Positions 2,511 to 47,392 of a stretch of 64,000 bases of DNA are shown piece by piece. The position numbers and the translations under genes are program-made. Location: contig CAZMTO010000001.1 in assembly GCA_964569265.1 (NCBI GenBank), forward strand, positions 3,995 to 67,994. Direction: 5' to 3'. Every line of letters begins with the position of its first letter. Within the stretch, counting starts at the first letter, position 1. The notes below the pieces were generated by a model that was not told where the DNA came from, ran no database searches, and saw only the letters and a list, made by a program, of their open reading frames with translations. This DNA comes from an uncultured Peptococcaceae bacterium (GTDB lineage: Bacteria; Bacillota; Dehalobacteriia; UBA4068; UBA4997).

Positions 2511-4193
2511 ATGGAAACTTTGTCCGAAACTTTAAAAGAAACTGAAGAAAAAACTATGGCCGGCAATTTTATTCACGATGAAATAGAAGCCGACCTGAGC
2601 GAGGGTAAATGTGGAGAAACTGTGCATACACGCTTTCCTCCGGAGCCTAACGGCTACCTGCATATTGGCCACGCCAAAAGTATTTGCTTAAACTTTGGCA
2701 CTGCCAAAAAATACAAGGGCATTTGCAACCTGCGCTTTGACGATACCAACCCCGCCAAGGAAGAACAGGAATTTATGGATGCCATTAAGGCCGACATACA
2801 CTGGCTGGGCTTTGACTGGGGCGACAACCTGTGCTTTGCTTCGGATTATTTTGAACAACTGTATCAGTTTGCCGTGCAGCTTATAAAAGACGGCAAAGCC
2901 TACGTTTGTCAGCTATCTGCCGACCAGATGCGCGAATATCGCGGTTCTATCGGCGTGCCGGCTCAATCTCCGTGGCGTGACCGCCCCATTGAAGAAAGCC
3001 TTGACCTGTTTGCACGTATGCGCGCCGGTGAATTTGCCGACGGTGAATATACTCTGCGTGCCAAAATAGATCTGGCATCGCCTAACTTTGTTATGCGTGA
3101 CCCGGTTATTTACCGTATACAGCACAGCACCCACAACCGCACCGGCGATGATTGGTGCATCTACCCGATGTACGACTTTGCCCACCCGCTGTCTGATTCG
3201 TTAGAGGGCATTACCCATTCTGTTTGTACTATGGAATTTGAAATTCATCGCCCGCTGTATGAATGGCTGATAGAAAACACCAACTGCCCCACCAAAAGCC
3301 GTCAGATTGAGTTTGCGCGCCTTAATTTAACCCACACCGTTATGAGCAAGCGGTTTTTGCGCCGTCTGGTAGAAGAAGGCTATGTATCCGGCTGGGATGA
3401 CCCGCGTATGCCTACGCTTTCCGGCTTGCGCCGCCGCGGCTACACACCGGAATCTATCCGCGATTTTTGTGAGCGCATTGGTGTGGCCAAAGCTGAAAGT
3501 ATGGTAGACAGTGCCCTGCTGGAGCATTGCCTGCGCGAGGATTTAAACACCAAGGCCGACCGCGTTATGTGCGTGTTAGACCCCATAAAGCTGGTAATTA
3601 CCAATTACCCCGATGACGGACGCGAAATGCTGCCCATTGATAATAACCCGGAACGCCCGGAGCGCGGCAAACGTCTGGTATCTTTCAGTAAAGAGCTTTA
3701 TATTGAACGCAGCGATTTTATGGAAAACCCGCCAAAGAAGTTCTTCCGTCTGTGTCCGGGCGGCGAGGTTCGCTTAAAATCGGCTTATATAATTAAATGT
3801 GAAGAAGTTGTTAAAGACGAGGCCGGCAATATTACCGAAATTCGCTGCACTTATGACCCCGAAACAAAATCCGGCGGCAGCAGCACCAAAAAGGTAAAAG
3901 CCACCATACACTGGGTAAACGCCCGCGAATGTAAGGATGCCGAGGTGCGCCTGTATGATTACCTGTTTACGGCCGATGACCCCTATGATATGCCCGAAGG
4001 CGGCGATTTTATCGACAATTTAAACCCCGACAGCCTGGAGGTAAAGCAGGCCAAAATAGAACCCCTGCTGCCTATGCCCGGCGAACGTTTTCAGTTTTTG
4101 CGCCACGGTTATTTTGTTACCGACCCCGATACAGAAAACGACCTGCCGGTGTTTAACCGCATAGTTTCTCTTAAAAGCAACTACAAGGGTTAG
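2511..4193 (+). CDS. glnS: glutaminyl-tRNA synthetase
   Basis: 560 aa class I aaRS with HIGH motif [12 protein letters not shown] and KMSKS motif VMSKR. The N-terminal block [24 protein letters not shown]...NLRFDDTNP is near-identical to E. coli GlnRS. Confidence 0.92.
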
Positions 4194-4402: not shown

Positions 4403-5487
4403 TGACCGACAACGACAACAACAGGTTAAGCCCTCTGTATAAGCTTAACCTTAAAATACTGGCCAAAAAGCTGCCCGGCTATAATCTGGCGGATATTTTG
4501 GGCCGCGATGCCAACGGCAGGGTTCACCATGGGTCGGGCTGGTTTTACTTTTTGCCGCATATTTACGGCAAACAACTGCTAAGCAACGATGTCGACAAAG
4601 CTGTGGGGACGCACGCCGTGCGCCTGCGCAGCGGGCTTATGCATAAGCTGTATCTTACGCTGGGGCAGTTGTTTTTTGAAGGCCACCGGCAGATAATCGT
4701 AAAAAAAGAGCCGCTGCCCCAAAGCAACCGGCCCCTTATATTTACGCCTACGCATTATTTTATGTTAGACCCGCTTTCCAGCATTATGCTGGCCGAAAAG
4801 CACGCGTATCTGGTGTTTGGCACCCTGCCGCACTTTTTTAACACCTTTTACGGCCCCGAAGCCTACTTAAACGGCTCTATTTTACTTAACCGGCGTGATA
4901 AAGCCAACCGCCACGCCGTAATAGAAAAAGCCGTGCGCGTTATTGAACAGGGCTCCGGCATCATAATTTTTCCGGAGGGCGGCTGGAACAAAAGCCCCAA
5001 CAGTCTGGTGCTGCCGCTGTGGCGCGGCGTATATACCATTGCCAGGCGCACCAATGCTCTGGTTGTGCCCATGGCTCATTTGCTGCGCGGTAAAAAAATC
5101 TATTCGTCACGGTTGGCACCGTTTGATATTTGCGCCTATGACAATGATCAGGCTGCACTCAGCGACCTGCGGGATACTATGGCCACCGGGCTTTGGCAGC
5201 TTATGGAACAGTTTGCCCCGCAAAGCCGCACCCAAATGCTGGGCGATTGTGCCACTATGCACGAATACTGCGAAAAGGTAGTCAGTGAACAGGCTAAAAC
5301 CTCCGGCTATTACTATGATTATTCTACCGAGGCCGGCGATAAAGGCAGTGATTTACGGCTGCCTGGCGCACCCCACGCGGCTGATGTCTGGCGGGACATT
5401 GGCGATATGGAGGTTTCTGCACAAAATATCCACCATATAAAGCACGCCAAGCGCCTGCACGACGAAGATTATCAGCGGCGGTTTTAA
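4402..5487 (+). CDS. PlsC-like lysophospholipid acyltransferase family protein
   Basis: HX4D motif (THYFMLD) and FPEGG motif (IIFPEGGWNK) of the glycerol-3-phosphate/1-acylglycerol-3-phosphate acyltransferase family. The ATG overlaps the PspC stop, so the start is 3 nt inside the listed ORF. Confidence 0.6.
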   Translation: MTDNDNNRLSPLYKLNLKILAKKLPGYNLADILGRDANGRVHHGSGWFYFLPHIYGKQLLSNDVDKAVGTHAVRLRSGLMHKLYLTLGQLFFEGHRQIIVKKEPLPQSNRPLIFTPTHYFMLDPLSSIMLAEKHAYLVFGTLPHFFNTFYGPEAYLNGSILLNRRDKANRHAVIEKAVRVIEQGSGIIIFPEGGWNKSPNSLVLPLWRGVYTIARRTNALVVPMAHLLRGKKIYSSRLAPFDICAYDNDQAALSDLRDTMATGLWQLMEQFAPQSRTQMLGDCATMHEYCEKVVSEQAKTSGYYYDYSTEAGDKGSDLRLPGAPHAADVWRDIGDMEVSAQNIHHIKHAKRLHDEDYQRRF

Positions 5488-8318: not shown

Positions 8319-8357
8319 TATAACAAGCCATGTTTAACAACTAAATAAAATAATCAA

Positions 8358-8392
8358 AATGCTGCCTGACTATTGGGCAGCATTTTTTTTGC
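8358..8392 (+). terminator. intrinsic terminator after the AGCS symporter
   Basis: AATGCTGCC/GGCAGCATT stem with a 9-nt loop, followed by TTTTTTTT. Confidence 0.8.
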
Positions 8393-8393
8393 T

Positions 8394-8885
8394 GTTTAAG
8401 CCGTCTAAAATCCTCTGTAAGCGTTTTTAGCTGCGCATATGACACAGACGTAAGCCGACACTGTTTAAACCGCTCAAAACGCCTCTAATCGCGTTTAAGA
8501 GCAAAGCACCTGCCTATGCAGCCGCCCATATTGTTTTACACGTGACCAGATATCATACATCTGTAAAAACATCAAAAGACATTTGTCTTTACACGGCAAA
8601 TATTTTGACCTGTAAGCCGTCTAAAACCGCCTGTAACGGGTTTTAGCCCACCAATGGGTATACCCGTTAGGGCAGGGCGCTTAAAACCCCTTAAAACGGC
8701 TTTTTGACAGCACCTCTTTAAAGTTTATCCGTCAGGACAGAGCTTGTACGCCACAGGCCGGGCAAATTTTTGCCGTGTAAGGGTGCTAAAAGCCTTTGTG
8801 AGCGCATATAATATGCCAAAGGATATCCCACTAAGGGGGTGGTGCTTACGACGGCTCAAAACGGCTTAAATCGCGTTTGCCCTCA
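8394..8885. repeat. cluster of at least 5 imperfect-palindromic short repeats (core ...GCCGTCTAAAAyC..CTGTAAgCG..TTTTAGC / GCTCAAAACGnCT.TAATCGCGTTT)
   Basis: Copies at about 8394-8433, 8447-8502, 8598-8649, 8772-8807 and 8849-8883. Each can fold as a CTAAAAC...GTTTTAG hairpin. There is no coding potential. Confidence 0.55.
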
Positions 8886-9019
8886 GGCGTGCATCGGCAG
8901 AGGCAAAAACCGCGGTAGCCAAGGCCACTGCTGCCCGGCACGCCAGCCGCCGCCGCATTTTTACCCAAAACCGCTGCCCCACAAAATTTGTACCTATTAT
9001 AATTGGTGTGCCGCCTGTT

Positions 9020-9672
9020 AAAACGTGTTTCTTCCTATTATAAATAGGCACTAAATTACAGCTTTTTTGCATTACGCCAAAACAGCGTCAAATTACGCAG
9101 GCAAATTGCTGGGCTGCGCCGGCGGTATGTTCGTTGGGCACGAACAAAATAACCGTGTTTCTACCTATTATAAATAGGCTGTAAAAAGCAGGTTTTTTTG
9201 TCCACGGCAAGCAGCCTGCGTTTATTGACAGTTTTTTTGGCTGTGCTGCAAATTTTATTCCTATTATATAAGCAGCGTTTGTTGGGTTTAAGCTGGCAGC
9301 CGATGCTAAAGGGGCGCCGTATTTAAACGTGTTTCTTCCTATTATAAATACACATTTATTTTGCCGTTTTGTATGTACGTCATTTCTTCCTATTAAAATT
9401 AGCTGCCAAATAAGCAGCAAACAGCCGCAGCCGCAGCGCACACTGCCCGGCAGGTAGCGCAGCCCCCGGTTGGCCGTACCACGGGCAAGTATTCTACCTA
9501 TTAAAGGAACGGCCAACTTGCAGCCCAAATGTATAATCGCGGCATTTTTGGCGGTCGGCAATCGTCGTTTCTTCCTATTAAAGAATTGCAAACAGTTAAA
9601 ACCGGGCGTTTAAATGTTTCTTCCTATTATAAAAGTGGTTTACACATTTATTCCTATTATAAAAAAGAAAAA
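9020..9672 (+). repeat. irregular array of about 9 direct repeats with consensus (GT)GTTTCTTCCTATTATAAA(TAGGC)
   Basis: Copies start near 9023, 9152, 9250, 9325, 9381, 9491, 9566, 9612 and 9644, all in the same orientation. Spacings are 129, 98, 75, 56, 110, 75, 46 and 32 nt. The first two copies contain a CCTAT-N5-ATAGG inverted repeat. ORF 9088..9591 is an artefact of this array. Confidence 0.7.
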
Positions 9673-9898
9673 AATTTTATTCACGTGTTTTCAGTTTTTT
9701 TGCATACGGCATTTAGGTGCCTGCAAGCAAGCTAAATGGGCATATATCCACATTTGGACACCCTGTATTAAATTGCACCGCGTTATATAGGGCTATTTGG
9801 CGAATTAAGGCATAACCTGACAAATGGGCCACAACAAAAGTAGCGTATATTTATACAAAAATACTGCATTAAACCCAAAAATCGTATGCAAAAATTGC

Positions 9899-9927
9899 TT
9901 GACAATCGACGAAAAATTAGGTACTAT
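9899..9927 (+). promoter_or_regulatory. sigma-70 promoter TTGACA-17-TACTAT for transporter copy 1
   Basis: TTGACA at 9899-9904, a 17-nt spacer, and TACTAT at 9922-9927. Confidence 0.6.
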
Positions 9928-10255
9928 TAACTTGATCGTATCGCAAACCTTTGCGCTGAGACGATTTGGCAGAAAAGCTTGTTGGCTGCAATGGCCAGCA
10001 GAAGCCCCGCCACCCAAAAAACCAATCGGTTTGCAGAGCATTTGGGCAAGGGGTATCTCGCCTACAGGCAGCCGGCATGGTCGTCCGCAAGCCAAGCCCG
10101 GGTATCAGGCGGGCAACAGCAGGCAAAGCCGATCAAGCCACGGCCCATCAACAGCAATTATTTTTTTATTTTTAGATTAGGCTGTGGATTGGTTGGGCAG
10201 AGCAAAGTTAAACGGCACGATACAAAAAAATCAAAAAAGAATCGAGGTTGCACTT
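9928..10255 (+). ncRNA. long 5-prime leader (about 320 nt) of transporter copy 1, a candidate cis-regulatory RNA of unknown riboswitch class
   Basis: Blockwise conserved with the leader of copy 2 (CTGAGACGA, GTTGGCTGCAA, CC(A)6CC..GGTTT.CAGAGCATTTGGG, CCTACAGGCAG.CGGC, TCGTCCGCA, CAGCAATTATTTTTTATTTT, TAGGCTGTGG..TTGGGCAG). Indels break any shared reading frame. Confidence 0.45.
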
Positions 10256-11689
10256 ATGAAAGACAAAAAGATCGTTAAGCTTATCACAATTGTTCTTTTC
10301 GTAGCGCTGTGTGCTTGGACGTTTACGTCTCTTTCCGGCATTACTCCTCCTGACGCCGCTGCTCTGGGCGGGGAAGAATCCGAGGCTTATGTAACTGCAT
10401 TGGCCGAATACGAGGATGCTTATCAGCACCAAACAGCACTTTTGACCTTGGGCGTTCTGGTTACCATCGCATTCGTATTTATTACTGAATCGTTCCCGAT
10501 CGCTCTGGCCGCAATGGTTATCCCCTGTTACTACTCTGTATCCGGCATTATGGGCTGGAAGAGCGCGTTCTCCGGTTTGATTGACTCCTCCGTACTTCTG
10601 TTCGGTGGTATGTTTATCGTAGGCGGCGCAATGTTCCAGACCGGCTTGGCTCAGAAGATCGGCCTTTCCTGCGTAAAGATCGCAGCAGGTTCTGAAACCA
10701 AGTTGCAGTTGGTTATCATGATCGTAACCGGCGCTCTGTCCTCTTGCTTGTCCAACACCGGTACTGTTGCAGTATTGCTGCCTGTTTGCTTGGGTATTGC
10801 TGATTCCGCCGGCATGAGCCGCGCTAAACTGTTGATGCCTCTGGCAATTATGGCTTCTTCCGGTGGTATGATCACCGTAGCCGGTACTCCTCCGAATATG
10901 TCCGCAAATGCTACCCTGGATATGGTTGGCTTGGCACTCGGCTTCTTCGACTTTGCCTGGTACGGCATCCCGGTATCTATCGCTTCTATCCTGTATGTAA
11001 TGCTCATTGGTAACAAGCTCATCCCCAACCGTAAATCTGATATCGTTGTTGAGGACGAAGAAGAAGGTAAAGTATACGATCCTAAGAAACAGATCATCGC
11101 CGGTGCAGTACTTATCGTATGTATCATCGGTATGGTAATCTCCGACACCATCGGTATTCCGCTGCAGGTTATCGCTATCATCGGCGGTATCACTTGTGTA
11201 TTCACCGGTTGTATGACCGATAAGGAAGCTTACGAGTCCATCGACTGGACCACCATCTTCCTGTTTGCAGGTGCTATCGGTTTGGCAAATGCAATGCAGT
11301 CCACCGGCGCAGGCGAATTGCTCTCCACCAAGGTTGTTGGTGTTCTGGGCGGTTCTCCCAACCCCTACGTTCTGTTGATCGTACTGTTCCTGCTGGCCGG
11401 CGGTCTTACTCAGTTTATGTCTAACACCGCTGCTGCTGCTCTGCTGTGCCCCATCGGCTTGTCCATCGCTCAGTCTCTGGGCGCTGACCCGACGGCTGTT
11501 GTACTGTCCATCGGTTTTGCTTGCTCCGCAGCATATGTAACTCCTGTAGCAACTCCTCCGAACACCATGGTATTCGGCCCTGCAGGTTTAACCTTTATGG
11601 ACTTTGTAAAAGTTGGTTTGCCGCTGTTCGTTATCGCATTTATCCTGGCAGTAGTAATCGTACCGATCGTATGGCCCTTCTTCCCGTGA
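10256..11689 (+). CDS. ion-transporter (ArsB/NhaD/CitMHS) superfamily permease, paralog 1
   Basis: 477 aa polytopic membrane protein with two hairpin-like GTPPN motifs (AGTPPNMSA, ATPPNTMVF). The start is at MKDKKIVKL, which has RBS GAGGT and is 72 nt inside ORF 10184..11689. It is about 85% identical to the downstream copy. Confidence 0.7.
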   Translation: MKDKKIVKLITIVLFVALCAWTFTSLSGITPPDAAALGGEESEAYVTALAEYEDAYQHQTALLTLGVLVTIAFVFITESFPIALAAMVIPCYYSVSGIMGWKSAFSGLIDSSVLLFGGMFIVGGAMFQTGLAQKIGLSCVKIAAGSETKLQLVIMIVTGALSSCLSNTGTVAVLLPVCLGIADSAGMSRAKLLMPLAIMASSGGMITVAGTPPNMSANATLDMVGLALGFFDFAWYGIPVSIASILYVMLIGNKLIPNRKSDIVVEDEEEGKVYDPKKQIIAGAVLIVCIIGMVISDTIGIPLQVIAIIGGITCVFTGCMTDKEAYESIDWTTIFLFAGAIGLANAMQSTGAGELLSTKVVGVLGGSPNPYVLLIVLFLLAGGLTQFMSNTAAAALLCPIGLSIAQSLGADPTAVVLSIGFACSAAYVTPVATPPNTMVFGPAGLTFMDFVKVGLPLFVIAFILAVVIVPIVWPFFP

Positions 11690-11740
11690 TAAAGCGCGTG
11701 TGGTAACGCAAGCTAAAACATAACTTAATTCAAAACCTTA

Positions 11741-11776
11741 AATACCCTCTGCTTAGGCAGGGGGTATTTTTTTGTG
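11741..11776 (+). terminator. intrinsic terminator after transporter copy 1
   Basis: TACCCTCTGC/GCAGGGGGTA stem followed by TTTTTTT. Confidence 0.75.
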
Positions 11777-12080
11777 CTGCTTTTGCCGGCGGCGTTTTTA
11801 CCCAGCAATTTGCTATGCCATATTATAATCAGTTACATTTGTGCCAAAATGTGCCGCAAAAATAAATTTTATAAAAAAATTTTATACACAAAATTTTTCG
11901 GGAATTTTTTCTGCAAAAAATGCCAAACTAAAAATTGCCCCAAAGCTTTATTAAACAGGCATTTGTCGAATTTTTGACACCTGCCGAAAATGTCGTTTGG
12001 GCGCCCCGGCAAGTATGCATAATTCTGCATTTATATACTAATATTTTGCATTAAACTAACAAGCCTATACAAAAATCTGC

Positions 12081-12109
12081 TTGACAATTATAAAAAAATA
12101 AGTTAACAT
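12081..12109 (+). promoter_or_regulatory. sigma-70 promoter TTGACA-17-TAACAT for transporter copy 2
   Basis: TTGACA at 12081-12086, a 17-nt spacer, and TAACAT at 12104-12109. The upstream context TAtaCAAAAATcTGCTTGACAAT is shared with the copy 1 promoter. Confidence 0.55.
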
Positions 12110-12451
12110 CAAAATTGTCGTGACAAAGGCTTATGTTCTGAGACGAATTTTGCGACTAAAAAACGCTGTTGGCTGCAAAGGATAGCAGGCACCTAACCCC
12201 AAAAAACCCACCCGGTTTACAGAGCATTTGGGAATTTGGTTCCTCACCTACAGGCAGTCGGCGAATTCGTCCGCAGGCCGCACCGGGGTTATTAGCCGGC
12301 AGGCGGCTGCAATGCCAAACAAACCACAACCCTTTTACAGCAATTATTTTTTATTTTACTGACTTATAGGCTGTGGGCGCTTGGGCAGTTCAAAAGGCTG
12401 CGCCGCGAACATCAAAAGAAAAGAATCTAAAAAAAGAATCGAGGTTGCACA
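12110..12451 (+). ncRNA. long 5-prime leader (about 340 nt) of transporter copy 2, homologous to the copy 1 leader
   Basis: Same conserved blocks as 9928-10255. It also ends in a U-rich tract (CAGCAATTATTTTTTATTTT) before the last roughly 90 nt and the RBS. Confidence 0.45.
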
Positions 12452-13891
12452 ATGAAAGACAAGAGAATTGTTAAGCTTATTACAGTTGTTCTTTTCCTGG
12501 CGCTGTGTGCTTGGACTTACACGTCCCTCTCCGGCATCACTGCACCCGACGCTGCTGCTCTGGGCGGGGAAGAGTCCGAGGCTTATGTAACTGCATTAGC
12601 CGAATACGAGGATGCTTATCAGCACCAAACCGCACTTTTAACTTTGGGTGTTTTGGTAGTAATTGCATTTGTATTTATTACTGAATCGTTCCCGATCGCT
12701 CTGGCTGCAATGGCCATCCCCTGTTACTACGCTGTTTCCGGCATTATGCCTTGGAAGTCCGCATTCAGTGGCTTGATCGACTCCTCCGTACTTCTGTTCG
12801 GCGGTATGTTTATCGTAGGCGGTGCAATGTTCCAGACCGGTTTGGCCCAGAAGATCGGCCTTTCCTGCGTAAAGATCGCTGCTGGTTCTGAAACCAAGTT
12901 GCAGATCGTTATCATGGTAGTAACCGGCGCTATGTCCGCGTTCCTGTCTAACACCGGTACTGTTGCAGTATTGCTGCCTGTTTGCTTGGGTATTGCTGAT
13001 TCTGCCGGCATGAGCCGCGCTAAGCTGTTGATGCCCCTGGCAATTATGGCTTCTTCCGGTGGTATGATCACCATGGCAGGTACTCCTCCGAATATGTCTG
13101 CTGCTGCTACCTTGCAGATGGCTGATATTCCGATCGGTTTCTTCGACTTTATCTGGTTCGGTCTGCCGATTTCCATCGTTTCTATTCTGTACGTAATGAC
13201 CATTGGTAACAAGCTAATCCCCAACCGTCAGTCTGACGTTGTTGTTGAGGACGAAGAAGAAGGCAAAGTATACGATCCCAAGAAGCAGATCATCGCCGGT
13301 TTTGTTCTGGCTGTATGTATCGTTGGTATGGCTGCTTCCGATGCTATTGGCATCCCGCTGCAGGTTATCGCTATCATCGGCGGTATCACTTGTGTATTCA
13401 CCGGTTGTATGACCGATAAGGAAGCTTACGAGTCCATCGACTGGACCACCATCTTCCTGTTTGCAGGTGCTATCGGTTTGGCAAATGCAATGCAGTCCAC
13501 CGGCGCAGGCGAATTGCTCTCCACCAAGGTTGTTGGTGTTCTGGGCGGTTCTCCCAACCCCTACGTTCTGTTGATCGTACTGTTCCTGCTGGCCGGCGGT
13601 CTTACTCAGTTTATGTCTAACACCGCTGCTGCTGCTCTGCTGTGCCCCATCGGCTTGTCCATCGCTCAGTCTCTGGGCGCTGACCCGACGGCTGTTGTAC
13701 TGTCCATCGGTTTTGCTTGCTCCGCAGCATATGTAACTCCTGTAGCAACTCCTCCGAACACCATGGTATTCGGCCCTGCAGGTTTAACCTTTATGGACTT
13801 TGTAAAAGTTGGTTTGCCGCTGTTCCTTATCACCGGCGTTCTGGCTTTGGTAGTTGTACCGATTGTATGGCCTTTCTTCCCGGGTGCTTAA
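12452..13891 (+). CDS. ion-transporter (ArsB/NhaD/CitMHS) superfamily permease, paralog 2
   Basis: 479 aa, collinear with paralog 1 (MKDKRIVKLITVVLF...), with RBS GAGGT. Confidence 0.75.
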   Translation: MKDKRIVKLITVVLFLALCAWTYTSLSGITAPDAAALGGEESEAYVTALAEYEDAYQHQTALLTLGVLVVIAFVFITESFPIALAAMAIPCYYAVSGIMPWKSAFSGLIDSSVLLFGGMFIVGGAMFQTGLAQKIGLSCVKIAAGSETKLQIVIMVVTGAMSAFLSNTGTVAVLLPVCLGIADSAGMSRAKLLMPLAIMASSGGMITMAGTPPNMSAAATLQMADIPIGFFDFIWFGLPISIVSILYVMTIGNKLIPNRQSDVVVEDEEEGKVYDPKKQIIAGFVLAVCIVGMAASDAIGIPLQVIAIIGGITCVFTGCMTDKEAYESIDWTTIFLFAGAIGLANAMQSTGAGELLSTKVVGVLGGSPNPYVLLIVLFLLAGGLTQFMSNTAAAALLCPIGLSIAQSLGADPTAVVLSIGFACSAAYVTPVATPPNTMVFGPAGLTFMDFVKVGLPLFLITGVLALVVVPIVWPFFPGA

Positions 13892-13920: not shown

Positions 13921-13955
13921 AAGACTCTCTGCTTTTAGCAGGGAGTCTTTTTTTA
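13921..13955 (+). terminator. intrinsic terminator after transporter copy 2
   Basis: GACTCTCTGC/GCAGGGAGTC stem with loop TTTTA, followed by TTTTTTT. Confidence 0.75.
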
Positions 13956-13995: not shown

Positions 13996-14949
13996 GTGTT
14001 ACTAAGCGCGGAGGTTTTTACTGTGTCTACCATACAAATTTGCCACCCGGCCCCGGCAGATGTTGCGGCAATGCAAGCCCTATGGCAGGCGGCCTTTACC
14101 GAAGATGCCCACAGCGGCTATGTTACGTGGTATTTTGCCAACCGTTTTGCGGCAACAACCACCTGGCTGCTAAAGCTTAACGGCACTGCTGCGGCTATGG
14201 CTTTTGCGCCCACCCACACACTGCTGACACCGAACGGCCCCGTAGCCGTGCCCTACCTGCAAGGCATAGCCACCTTGCCCGACTTACAGGGGCGTGGGCT
14301 TTGCCACAAGCTGCTTAGCCGCGTTTTTGCTGATTTAACGGCGGCCAATTACCCCTGCTGCGTTTTAAAGCCATTTGATGCTGCTTTTTACGAACCGTTG
14401 GGTTTTAAGTTTTTTGCTTATTTACGGCAATATAAGCTAAATTTTGCCAACTGTTTTTTGCAGCCGCCCACCGATGATATAAGCTTTGTGCAACACCAAA
14501 GCTGTGCCGCGGCAGATGATGCTGCCCAAATATATGCGGCGTGGCTTAGCCAAATACCCTGCTATGCCCGGCGCACCCCGGCAGATTTTAAGCTGCTGCT
14601 GGCCGACCATTTTAATGACCGCGGCAACCTGCTAATGGCCTATGCCGGCAACCGGCCTGTGGCCTACGCACTTTACAGCGCCACCGCCAACGGTTTGTTT
14701 ATCCGCGAGCTGGCCTGCACCAACCCCCGTGCTGCTACCAATTTGCTGCGCCGTATTGCCGCCGATTACCGCGACACTGCCCCGTGTGCCCTGCTGATAG
14801 CGCCGGACGATTATCGGCTGTGTATGCCCCTGCCACAGACAACGGCCGGTTGGCAAGTTGTGCCTTTTGCTATGTATAAACCCTTGACGGCAGCACCGCA
14901 AGAATGTTACAATCAAATAAAAGATGCTTATTTTTACGAATATTTTTGA
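13996..14949 (+). CDS. GNAT-family N-acetyltransferase, Eis-like two-domain architecture
   Basis: Acetyl-CoA binding motif LQGRGLCHKLL (Q/RxxGxG/A), a length of about 310 aa and a second GNAT-like half. The start is uncertain: GTG at 13996 per the ORF track, or GTG at 14023 with RBS GGAGG. Confidence 0.5.
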   Translation: MLLSAEVFTVSTIQICHPAPADVAAMQALWQAAFTEDAHSGYVTWYFANRFAATTTWLLKLNGTAAAMAFAPTHTLLTPNGPVAVPYLQGIATLPDLQGRGLCHKLLSRVFADLTAANYPCCVLKPFDAAFYEPLGFKFFAYLRQYKLNFANCFLQPPTDDISFVQHQSCAAADDAAQIYAAWLSQIPCYARRTPADFKLLLADHFNDRGNLLMAYAGNRPVAYALYSATANGLFIRELACTNPRAATNLLRRIAADYRDTAPCALLIAPDDYRLCMPLPQTTAGWQVVPFAMYKPLTAAPQECYNQIKDAYFYEYF

Positions 14950-47315: not shown

Positions 47316-47392
47316 CGAGGTGTGGCTCAGTTTGGTAGAGCGCTGCGTTCGGGACGCAGAGGCCGCAGGTTCGAATCCTGTCACCTCGACCA
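47316..47392 (+). tRNA. tRNA-Pro (anticodon CGG)
   Basis: Acceptor CGAGGTG/CACCTCG, anticodon stem CTGCG/CGCAG with loop ttCGGga, GGTTCGAATCC T-arm, and encoded CCA. A TTGCAA...TGGTATAAT promoter lies upstream. Confidence 0.9.

Follow-up and report, generated by a model that had tools for sequence, protein, structure and literature searches.

A candidate structured cis-regulatory RNA in the long leaders of tandem DASS/SLC13 permease genes of an uncultured gut Bacillota bacterium

A stretch of 64,000 nt from an uncultured Peptococcaceae bacterium (contig CAZMTO010000001.1, positions 3,995 to 67,994; referred to below, at its full length, as the window) was analysed with respect to the long leaders that precede two tandem permease genes. 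Permease A (10256..11689, + strand, 477 aa) and permease B (12452..13891, + strand, 479 aa) were assigned to the DASS/SLC13 family from open reading frame (ORF) calls and family profile searches, in which both matched PF03600 and PF00939 and scored above the cutoff of TIGR00785. The two proteins are 90.8% identical, and the closest solved structure to permease A is VcINDY (E = 1.4e-37). Their leaders, of 328 nt (A) and 342 nt (B), are predicted to be the 5' untranslated regions (UTRs) of the permease mRNAs and to fold into a single large cis-acting RNA of ∼300 nt. Comparison with related leaders makes it credible that this is a genuine structured cis-regulatory RNA with covariation support, representing a new family and a candidate riboswitch.

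All features described for the two units lie on the + strand. Promoter A (9899..9927, TTGACA-17-TACTAT) has a predicted transcription start at ∼9933-9935, and promoter B (12081..12109) reads TTGACA-17-TAACAT; a promoter scan returned them as the top two matches of the region, at 10/12 each. The intrinsic terminator of unit A (11740..11769) was found by terminator scan. The terminator of unit B (13923..13954), a 10-bp stem GACUCUCUGC/GCAGGGAGUC (13923-13947) followed by U7, was absent from the list produced by the consensus terminator scan and was read by eye from the sequence. A first-pass annotation of the same DNA had given each paralog its own promoter, terminator and long leader and had described conserved blocks in the same order in both leaders, and every one of these elements was located where it had been placed. 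The leaders are 65-72% identical and the coding regions 79-100%. Over a 471-nt tract in their 3' halves (11159-11629 and 13355-13825) the genes are 100% identical, against 79-92% in their 5' halves. The contrast of this tract with the diverged 5' halves and leaders indicates recent or ongoing gene conversion that is limited to the coding region.

Independent minimum free energy (MFE) folds of the leaders gave one shared architecture, a four-way junction closed by helix P1 and carrying three arms. In P1, made up of P1a and P1b, the first ∼25 nt of the transcript are connected with a stretch lying 15-45 nt upstream of the ribosome-binding site. The consensus of P1a is 5' AUCGU(A)UCG with 3' CGG(C)ACGAU and that of P1b is 5' UUUUGCGCUG with 3' CAGNGCAAA. 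The first arm, Domain I (∼130 nt), is built from P2 and P3, with an optional side hairpin between them, followed by the internal loop AA(N)/(N)ACAG and a long arm; an invariant CAGAGCA bulge, held in a short flanking stem, lies 3' of the terminal hairpin. Hairpin P5 makes up the second arm. The long hairpin P6 is the third, and its loop opens with a conserved ACAGCWAUUAU and continues into an AU-rich tract.

The P1a 5' strand of leader A (AUCGUAUCG, 9935..9943) lies at the far 5' end of the predicted transcript and pairs in the MFE fold with the P1a 3' strand (CGGCACGAU, 10213..10221). The P1b 5' strand (CUUUGCGCUG, 9949..9958) pairs with CAGAGCAAAG at 10198..10207. Domain I of this leader spans 9960..10085, with P2 at 9960-9967/10078-10085, P3 at 9980-9989/10068-10077, the internal loop AAU / UACAG and the CAGAGCA bulge at 10034-10040. 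It is followed by P5 (10087..10124, MFE fold) and by P6 (10128..10197), whose terminal loop (10146-10179) contains the conserved ACAGCAAUUAUUUUUUUAUUUUU tract. An A-rich linker and the ribosome-binding block GAAUCGAGGUUGC complete the leader (10224..10258; GAGG at 10244-10247, AUG at 10256).

The same order is kept in leader B, from the P1b 5' strand (UUAUGUUCUG, 12131..12140) through Domain I (12142..12271; P2 at 12142-12149/12264-12271, P3 at 12167-12176/12254-12263, CAGAGCA bulge at 12220-12226), P5 (12273..12310, MFE fold) and P6 (12313..12385, AU-rich loop 12332-12369) to the P1b 3' strand (CAGUUCAAAA, 12386..12395) and the ribosome-binding block GAAUCGAGGUUGC (12436..12454; GAGG at 12441-12444, AUG at 12452). 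Both P1a strands have been lost from this copy: the 5' strand upstream of P1b is degenerate (UGUCGUGACA) and the CACGAUAC block expected downstream as the 3' strand is missing. Leader B also carries a local duplication beside its ribosome-binding site, AAGAAUCU followed by AAGAAUCG (12405-12445). The segments GGGGTATCTCGCC and CGGGTATCAGGCG, read in the first-pass annotation as paired changes, are not mutual partners, one belonging to the 3' side of the Domain I arm and the other to the separate P5 hairpin.

Permease homologs were traced to further contigs and to three metagenome-assembled genomes (MAGs), and leaders were sought there by nhmmer, using the window leaders first and then a profile. 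Eleven more leaders were obtained in addition to the two window copies, giving 13 distinct leaders with a mean identity of ∼50%. They come from loci L001, L003 (two), L004, L005, L006, L048, L049 and L058 and, found later, from L078/L079 and L080. Every one lies directly upstream of a ∼477-aa permease of the same DASS/SLC13 subfamily. The hosts are uncultured gut Bacillota, the named records being Bacillota MAGs from goat caecum and a Peptococcaceae-labelled MAG from rabbit. A genome scan with the permease as query yielded three close relatives only. A pattern scan of metagenomes (CACGRTAC-N3-15-RARGAATCGAGGTT) returned two stretches, both of them chance matches with no leader homology, and a covariance model of Domain I (CM R1) found no additional copy in the window or in 14 loci; this model missed the three most diverged leaders, L003a, L003b and L004b. 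As far as searched, the leader is restricted to one lineage of uncultured gut Bacillota.

The 11 leaders whose promoters were examined all have a perfect TTGACA, a 17-18-nt spacer and a TAnnAT -10 element, and the conserved GAUCGU starts 9-10 nt past the -10 element. This fixed distance implies that the conserved RNA begins at the predicted 5' end of the transcript. Other permease copies have no leader (L049a, L058a, L004a, L005a, L052, L064, L069 and L073). The ribosome-binding block is GAAUCGAGGUU in every leader-bearing copy, compared with a strong AAAGGAGGA in leaderless paralogs and orthologs. The permeases nearest to window copy A (80-81% identical) are preceded by ∼300-nt regions that lack leader homology (L078:1293-1608 and L080:985-1286); these leaderless copies retain a GGAATCGAGGTG ribosome-binding block, and a third copy downstream has a full leader. 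From this mixture of leaderless and leader-bearing copies in L078 and L080, leaders seem to have been gained or lost copy by copy.

Alignment of whole leaders with MAFFT followed by RNAalifold recovered only P1a, part of P2 and P3. Since the arms vary in length, which defeats MAFFT, a covariance-model alignment and a hand-anchored block alignment were used instead. For the block alignment, four helices (P1b, P2, P3 and the CAGAGCA-flanking stem) were excised at fixed distance from conserved anchors and padded with N; block order was verified in the real sequences and the padded rows were confirmed to be unaltered by the aligner. Across the 13 leaders 91.3% of cells were paired, compared with 36-49% when the partner strand was slid, and 24 of 33 pairs had changed on both sides in a compensatory manner. 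The covariation score was 0.390 against 0.162 for shuffled alignments, and 0/500 shuffles reached any of the measures. Compensatory pairs were distributed as 7/8 in P2, 7/10 in P3, 5/5 in the flanking stem and 5/10 in P1b, where 87% of cells were paired. The corresponding values for 11 leaders were 93.2% and 19/33; the remaining two leaders were obtained after the structural model had been fixed, and both fit it. An independent alignment to the covariance model of Domain I, comprising eight distinct leaders, gave 94.8% paired cells for P2 and P3 together (27-57% with slid partners), 10 of the 17 pairs being compensatory.

Domain I on its own adopted the same MFE shape in 10 leaders, with z = -2.4 to -5.0 relative to shuffles (z = -2.61 for leader B), and full-length leader A also folded better than its shuffles (z = -2.6). 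P5 and P6 contained a few compensatory pairs within subgroups. More informatively, a P5 hairpin occupies the same position in every leader though its sequences are unrelated between subgroups, and P6 has wholly different stem sequences between subgroups while retaining the hairpin and the AGCWAUUAU loop motif. The AUCGU/ACGAU core of P1a is conserved in 12/13 leaders and shows wobble changes only.

These counts bear on the view that the leaders are conserved at the level of DNA alone, as the residue of tandem duplication and gene conversion or as operator sites, with no functional RNA. The 471-nt identical tract, as a sign of ongoing conversion, and a repeat array just upstream of promoter A that might bind a transcription factor would fit such a view. 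It is contradicted by the covariation counts: in other species, at ∼50% identity, the leaders are conserved through compensatory changes that preserve pairing. The leaders are moreover the most diverged part of the duplicated unit and the conversion tract is confined to the 3' half of the coding region. Conservation as DNA only is accordingly regarded as highly improbable. The proposal in the first-pass annotation that the leaders are a conserved structured cis-acting RNA was thus borne out, by homologs outside the genome and by helices with covariation support.

Three longer-range pairings were considered and rejected. Pairing of the CAGAGCA bulge with the conserved 5' block UUUGCGCUG has a central mismatch in most leaders, and its register is lost in L006, L080c and L078c. 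A match between the U-rich loop of P6 and the A-rich linker that precedes the Shine-Dalgarno (SD) sequence fails in L003a and L003b, whose linker is U-rich. Pairing of GCAAUU in the P6 loop with GGUUGC at the SD leaves the GCUAUU loop variants uncompensated.

Known RNA classes were searched for in the window and in related loci. Rfam 15 matched four tRNAs in the whole window (a cluster of three and one more, 854-1160 and 47316-47389) and nothing in the leaders. In permissive mode (E <= 10) the region 9700-12500 gave only terminator-like noise outside the leaders, and eight related loci (E <= 1) gave nothing in theirs. The view that the leader belongs to no known riboswitch class therefore held for the window and for these loci. 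The T-box core patterns GGUGG.ACC and UGG.ACC[GA]CG were absent from 13/13 leaders, there was no match to RF00230, and no AG-bulge consensus was present at a conserved position. The PyrR loop consensus UCCAGAGAGG was likewise absent from the leaders and RF00515 did not match; CCAGAGCA resembles the PyrR motif over six bases only. TRAP-type repeats (5 or more (G/U)AG) were absent from the leaders, and a literature search returned no description of the motif. What the leader does have is one of the generic hallmarks of a riboswitch, a conserved structured 5' UTR domain with covariation support.

The conservation is also not that of an upstream open reading frame, as had been argued from a frame-breaking indel. 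The window leaders are separated by indels of 5, 1, 3, 1, 9 and 1 nt, which break any common frame, and the longest ORFs of the 13 leaders read through the invariant CAGAGC in each of the three frames and encode unrelated peptides. Some ORFs have been placed over leaders, namely 159-aa 'genes' at L003:537-1016 (+) and L058:4341-4820 (-) and a GTG-extended, 501-aa form of permease A (10184-11689); the RNA evidence makes it most likely that they are spurious.

A conserved run of 6-7 U lies in the AU-rich tract in the middle of every leader, and the first-pass annotation had suggested that it serves premature termination by a terminator/antiterminator switch. The tract forms the terminal loop of P6 and not the tail of a hairpin, so the suggestion is not supported. 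No G+C-rich stem lies directly upstream of the U-tract, and consensus scans of the window, L049 and L001 detected no intrinsic terminator inside the leaders. Relatives possess an SD-sequestering module instead, as described below. A termination switch is therefore considered very unlikely. The promoter scan flagged no internal promoter in the AU-rich tract.

With respect to this module, two groups of leaders can be distinguished. Group 2 consists of L005b, L006, L049b, L058b, L003a, L003b and L004b and has an anti-SD element (ACCUCG) and a hairpin, P7, between P6 and the 3' strands of P1. The 3' strand of P7 doubles as the P1b partner of the 5' block, such that P7 and P1b compete. In 7/7 of these leaders the best complement of the SD lies at a fixed site 33-52 nt upstream of it, and the complementarity is significant against dinucleotide shuffles (z = -2.0 to -4.3). 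L004b provides a single compensatory case, having changed both sides to ACCUCU opposite AGAGGU; its P7 hairpin is also flanked by two copies of AACGAUAC (L004:5120-5175). This local duplication and the one near the ribosome-binding site of leader B may be traces of expression-platform remodelling. The SD of group 2 is predicted to be mostly paired, with an unpaired probability of 0.00-0.20 in five leaders, 0.40 in L005b and 0.47 in L004b. Translational control by SD sequestration is thus supported in the relatives, on sequence and predicted pairing, as the only read-out module detectable there. P1 and the nested anti-SD:SD helix cross, and P1 closure should consequently free the SD, as in an ON switch.

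Group 1 comprises both window leaders, L048, L001a, L080c and L078c, and has the P1b 3' strand directly after P6. Whole-leader duplex scans of this group found no positionally conserved site complementary to the SD. The only alternative structure was a weak hairpin between GGCACGAU, the P1a 3' strand, and the SD-proximal AUCGAGGUU, formed when the 5' strand was withheld. The SD of window-type leaders was predicted to be about half open both with and without an available 5' strand. This behaviour, the absence of a detectable switch module in window-type leaders and the start of P1a within a few nt of the predicted 5' end would suit a constitutive element for mRNA stabilisation or processing, in which a paired 5' end guards against the 5'-end-dependent RNases of Bacillota and the P6 loop is an endonuclease site. 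A 5' stabiliser would need far less than a 300-nt four-way junction whose arms covary and whose loop motifs are invariant, and the relatives have competing structures (P7 against P1b, anti-SD against SD). Tandem paralogs in the relatives also differ in whether they have a leader, which suggests differential regulation. A purely stabilising role is on balance unlikely.

The explanation preferred as a whole, and held to be somewhat probable, is a ∼300-nt cis-regulatory RNA in which a signal-stabilised P1 acts as anti-sequestrator. The signal would stabilise the junction and P1 and would most likely be a small molecule related to the anionic substrate of the permease, or else a trans-acting factor. 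With P1 open in the relatives, the anti-SD would pair with the SD and translation would be off; with P1 closed, the nested anti-SD:SD pairing would be excluded and translation would be on. We infer that P1 is the anti-sequestrator in this scheme. The window leaders would belong to the subgroup that lost, or never had, the anti-SD/P7 module. Leader A, which keeps P1a and P1b, could act through the weak hairpin GGCACGAU:AUCGAGGUU or through a hidden mRNA 5' end that affects stability, and leader B, without either P1a strand, may be largely constitutive.

Several observations weigh against this explanation. No significant anti-SD was found in the 60 nt upstream of the SD in both window leaders, L048, L001a and L080c (z = -0.13 to +1.6), so the proposed read-out is not demonstrable for the window copies, and a complement of the SD in the 5' 32 nt was not significant in any leader. 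Even in the relatives, a pseudoknot might in principle accommodate both P1 and the anti-SD:SD pairing. Full-length leader B folds no better than its shuffles (z = +0.11). P1a is conserved rather than covarying, and its sequence is consistent with pairing. Anchors for the block alignment were placed by hand, and its 13 leaders, from about 8 lineages, are related to one another by descent. Both the promoters and the start of transcription are predicted from sequence. Finally, the large size of the RNA, its few invariant unpaired bases and its attachment to one gene family would be just as expected of a leader that binds a protein.

This last point leads to a different role, that of a docking site at which a trans-acting macromolecule (an RNA-binding protein, a tRNA or a small RNA) sets translation or stability. 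Its length of ∼300 nt, its long irregular arms and the scarcity of invariant unpaired motifs (CAGAGCA, ACAG and AGCWAUUAU) would be in keeping with docking, as would its attachment to one gene family in a narrow lineage. Three conserved single-stranded loops containing ACAG might represent a repeated protein-recognition motif, which they resemble. Among the loci seen, no gene for a candidate regulator accompanies the leader consistently, and the leader has no match to the T-box, PyrR, TRAP-type repeats or ribosomal leaders. Docking is therefore possible but rather doubtful.

The genes around the permeases were compared between the window and the relatives. The permease pair of the relatives is followed by a gene of the diaminopropionate ammonia-lyase family (NF006058, 445 bits against a cutoff of 276) and then by genes for an ACT_7 protein (absent in some), an LPG_synthase_C-like protein and a GNAT protein (L001:4350-7214, L048:2012-4860 and L049:5051-7440). 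A 611-nt gap (4440-5051) precedes the lyase gene of L049. The window has only the GNAT gene directly downstream of the permeases (13996-14949), from which the lyase, ACT_7 and LPG_synthase_C-like genes are concluded to be missing at this position. Leaderless orthologs adjoin a downstream gene for a 784-aa MalT/LuxR-type regulator. This adjacency to an activator gene indicates that the permease is regulated, and probably inducible, in other lineages, and it suggests that a protein activator may do the regulatory job where the leader is absent. The context as a whole fits an inducible uptake system.

The DNA upstream of the promoters was also inspected. Upstream of the leaderless orthologs lie 1.0-2.2 kb with no called genes and no leader homology (L052:1935-3001, L064:1602-3001 and L069:782-3001). 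Just upstream of promoter A, ∼1.6 kb of the window (8320-9899) contain no convincing ORF. Within this region a motif of 16-30 nt, GTTTCTTCCTATTATAAATAGG, occurs in nine same-strand copies (8988, 9029, 9159, 9255, 9333, 9384, 9569, 9618 and 9648); the window holds 10 matches in total against 0.5 expected by chance. A second motif has five copies at 8399-8878. Arrays of the GTTTCTTCCTATTATAAATAGG motif also lie upstream of the leader promoter in the closest relatives (L078:3319-3542, L079:1750-1973, and L080:1143 and 2839-3072). The array upstream of promoter A could consist of transcription-factor sites or of repeated promoter-like elements. A 167-aa ORF at 9088-9591 (-) has no family match, and it encodes repeated 'IIGRN' low-complexity peptides because it crosses the repeat array in antisense; it was rejected as being almost certainly no gene.

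A narrower version of the preferred explanation is that the leader is a new class of riboswitch, in which the junction directly binds the DASS/SLC13 substrate or a related metabolite, closes the 5'-3' helix and thereby switches permease synthesis on, the window copies being variants that shed the SD-sequestering platform. This proposal is tentative and is put forward as a possibility only. Candidates for the ligand include an organic dicarboxylate or tricarboxylate and an anion derived from an amino acid and connected with the diaminopropionate ammonia-lyase encoded nearby.

The closest functional parallel is with translational ON riboswitches such as the adenine riboswitch of Vibrio vulnificus add, in which P1 closure frees the ribosome-binding site. 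Shared features are the location in the 5' UTR, an aptamer-like junction closed by a helix whose 3' strand lies beside the expression platform and, in seven relatives, an anti-SD predicted to pair with the SD when P1 is unformed. The leader differs in being about four times larger, in its fold, in having no sequence or Rfam relationship to the add type and, for the window copies, in lacking an anti-SD. Four-way-junction ion riboswitches, the yybP-ykoY (Mn2+) and czcD (NiCo) types, also stand upstream of transporter genes. They resemble the leader in having a P1-closed four-helix junction, conserved internal loops in long arms and a position upstream of membrane transporters. Neither matched in Rfam (E <= 10 for the leader region, E <= 1 for the eight related loci); the conserved motifs of the leader (CAGAGCA, ACAG and AGCWAUUAU) differ from theirs, and its gene encodes a DASS organic-anion permease, not a metal exporter.

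T-boxes (RF00230) are similar as Bacillota leaders of >300 nt with an irregular first arm of ∼130 nt containing conserved internal loops. Some of them act on translation by SD sequestration, and the genes neighbouring the present leader concern amino-acid metabolism. Unlike T-boxes, the leader is closed by a 5'-3' helix, no RF00230 match was obtained, and neither the T-box core nor UGGN-ACC was present in any of the 13 leaders. Comparative genomics has also yielded orphan riboswitch candidates upstream of transporters (reviewed in PMC7266159), with which the leader shares conserved structure, covariation and a fixed position upstream of one gene class. It differs from them in not being among the curated families of Rfam 15 and, within the searches made, in being confined to a single lineage.

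Should the leader prove to be a riboswitch, the known set would gain a new fold and probably a new class of ligand. To our knowledge, none has yet been reported for permeases of the DASS organic-anion type. What the RNA binds would then point to the substrate of the transporter and would provide an experimental handle on this subfamily in uncultured gut Bacillota. If the leader instead binds a protein or stabilises the mRNA, it would still be a new structured RNA family, of more ordinary interest. With members that carry the anti-SD, window members that do not, leaderless paralogs and orthologs that adjoin a MalT-type gene, the leader family constitutes a natural experiment in the evolution of expression platforms.

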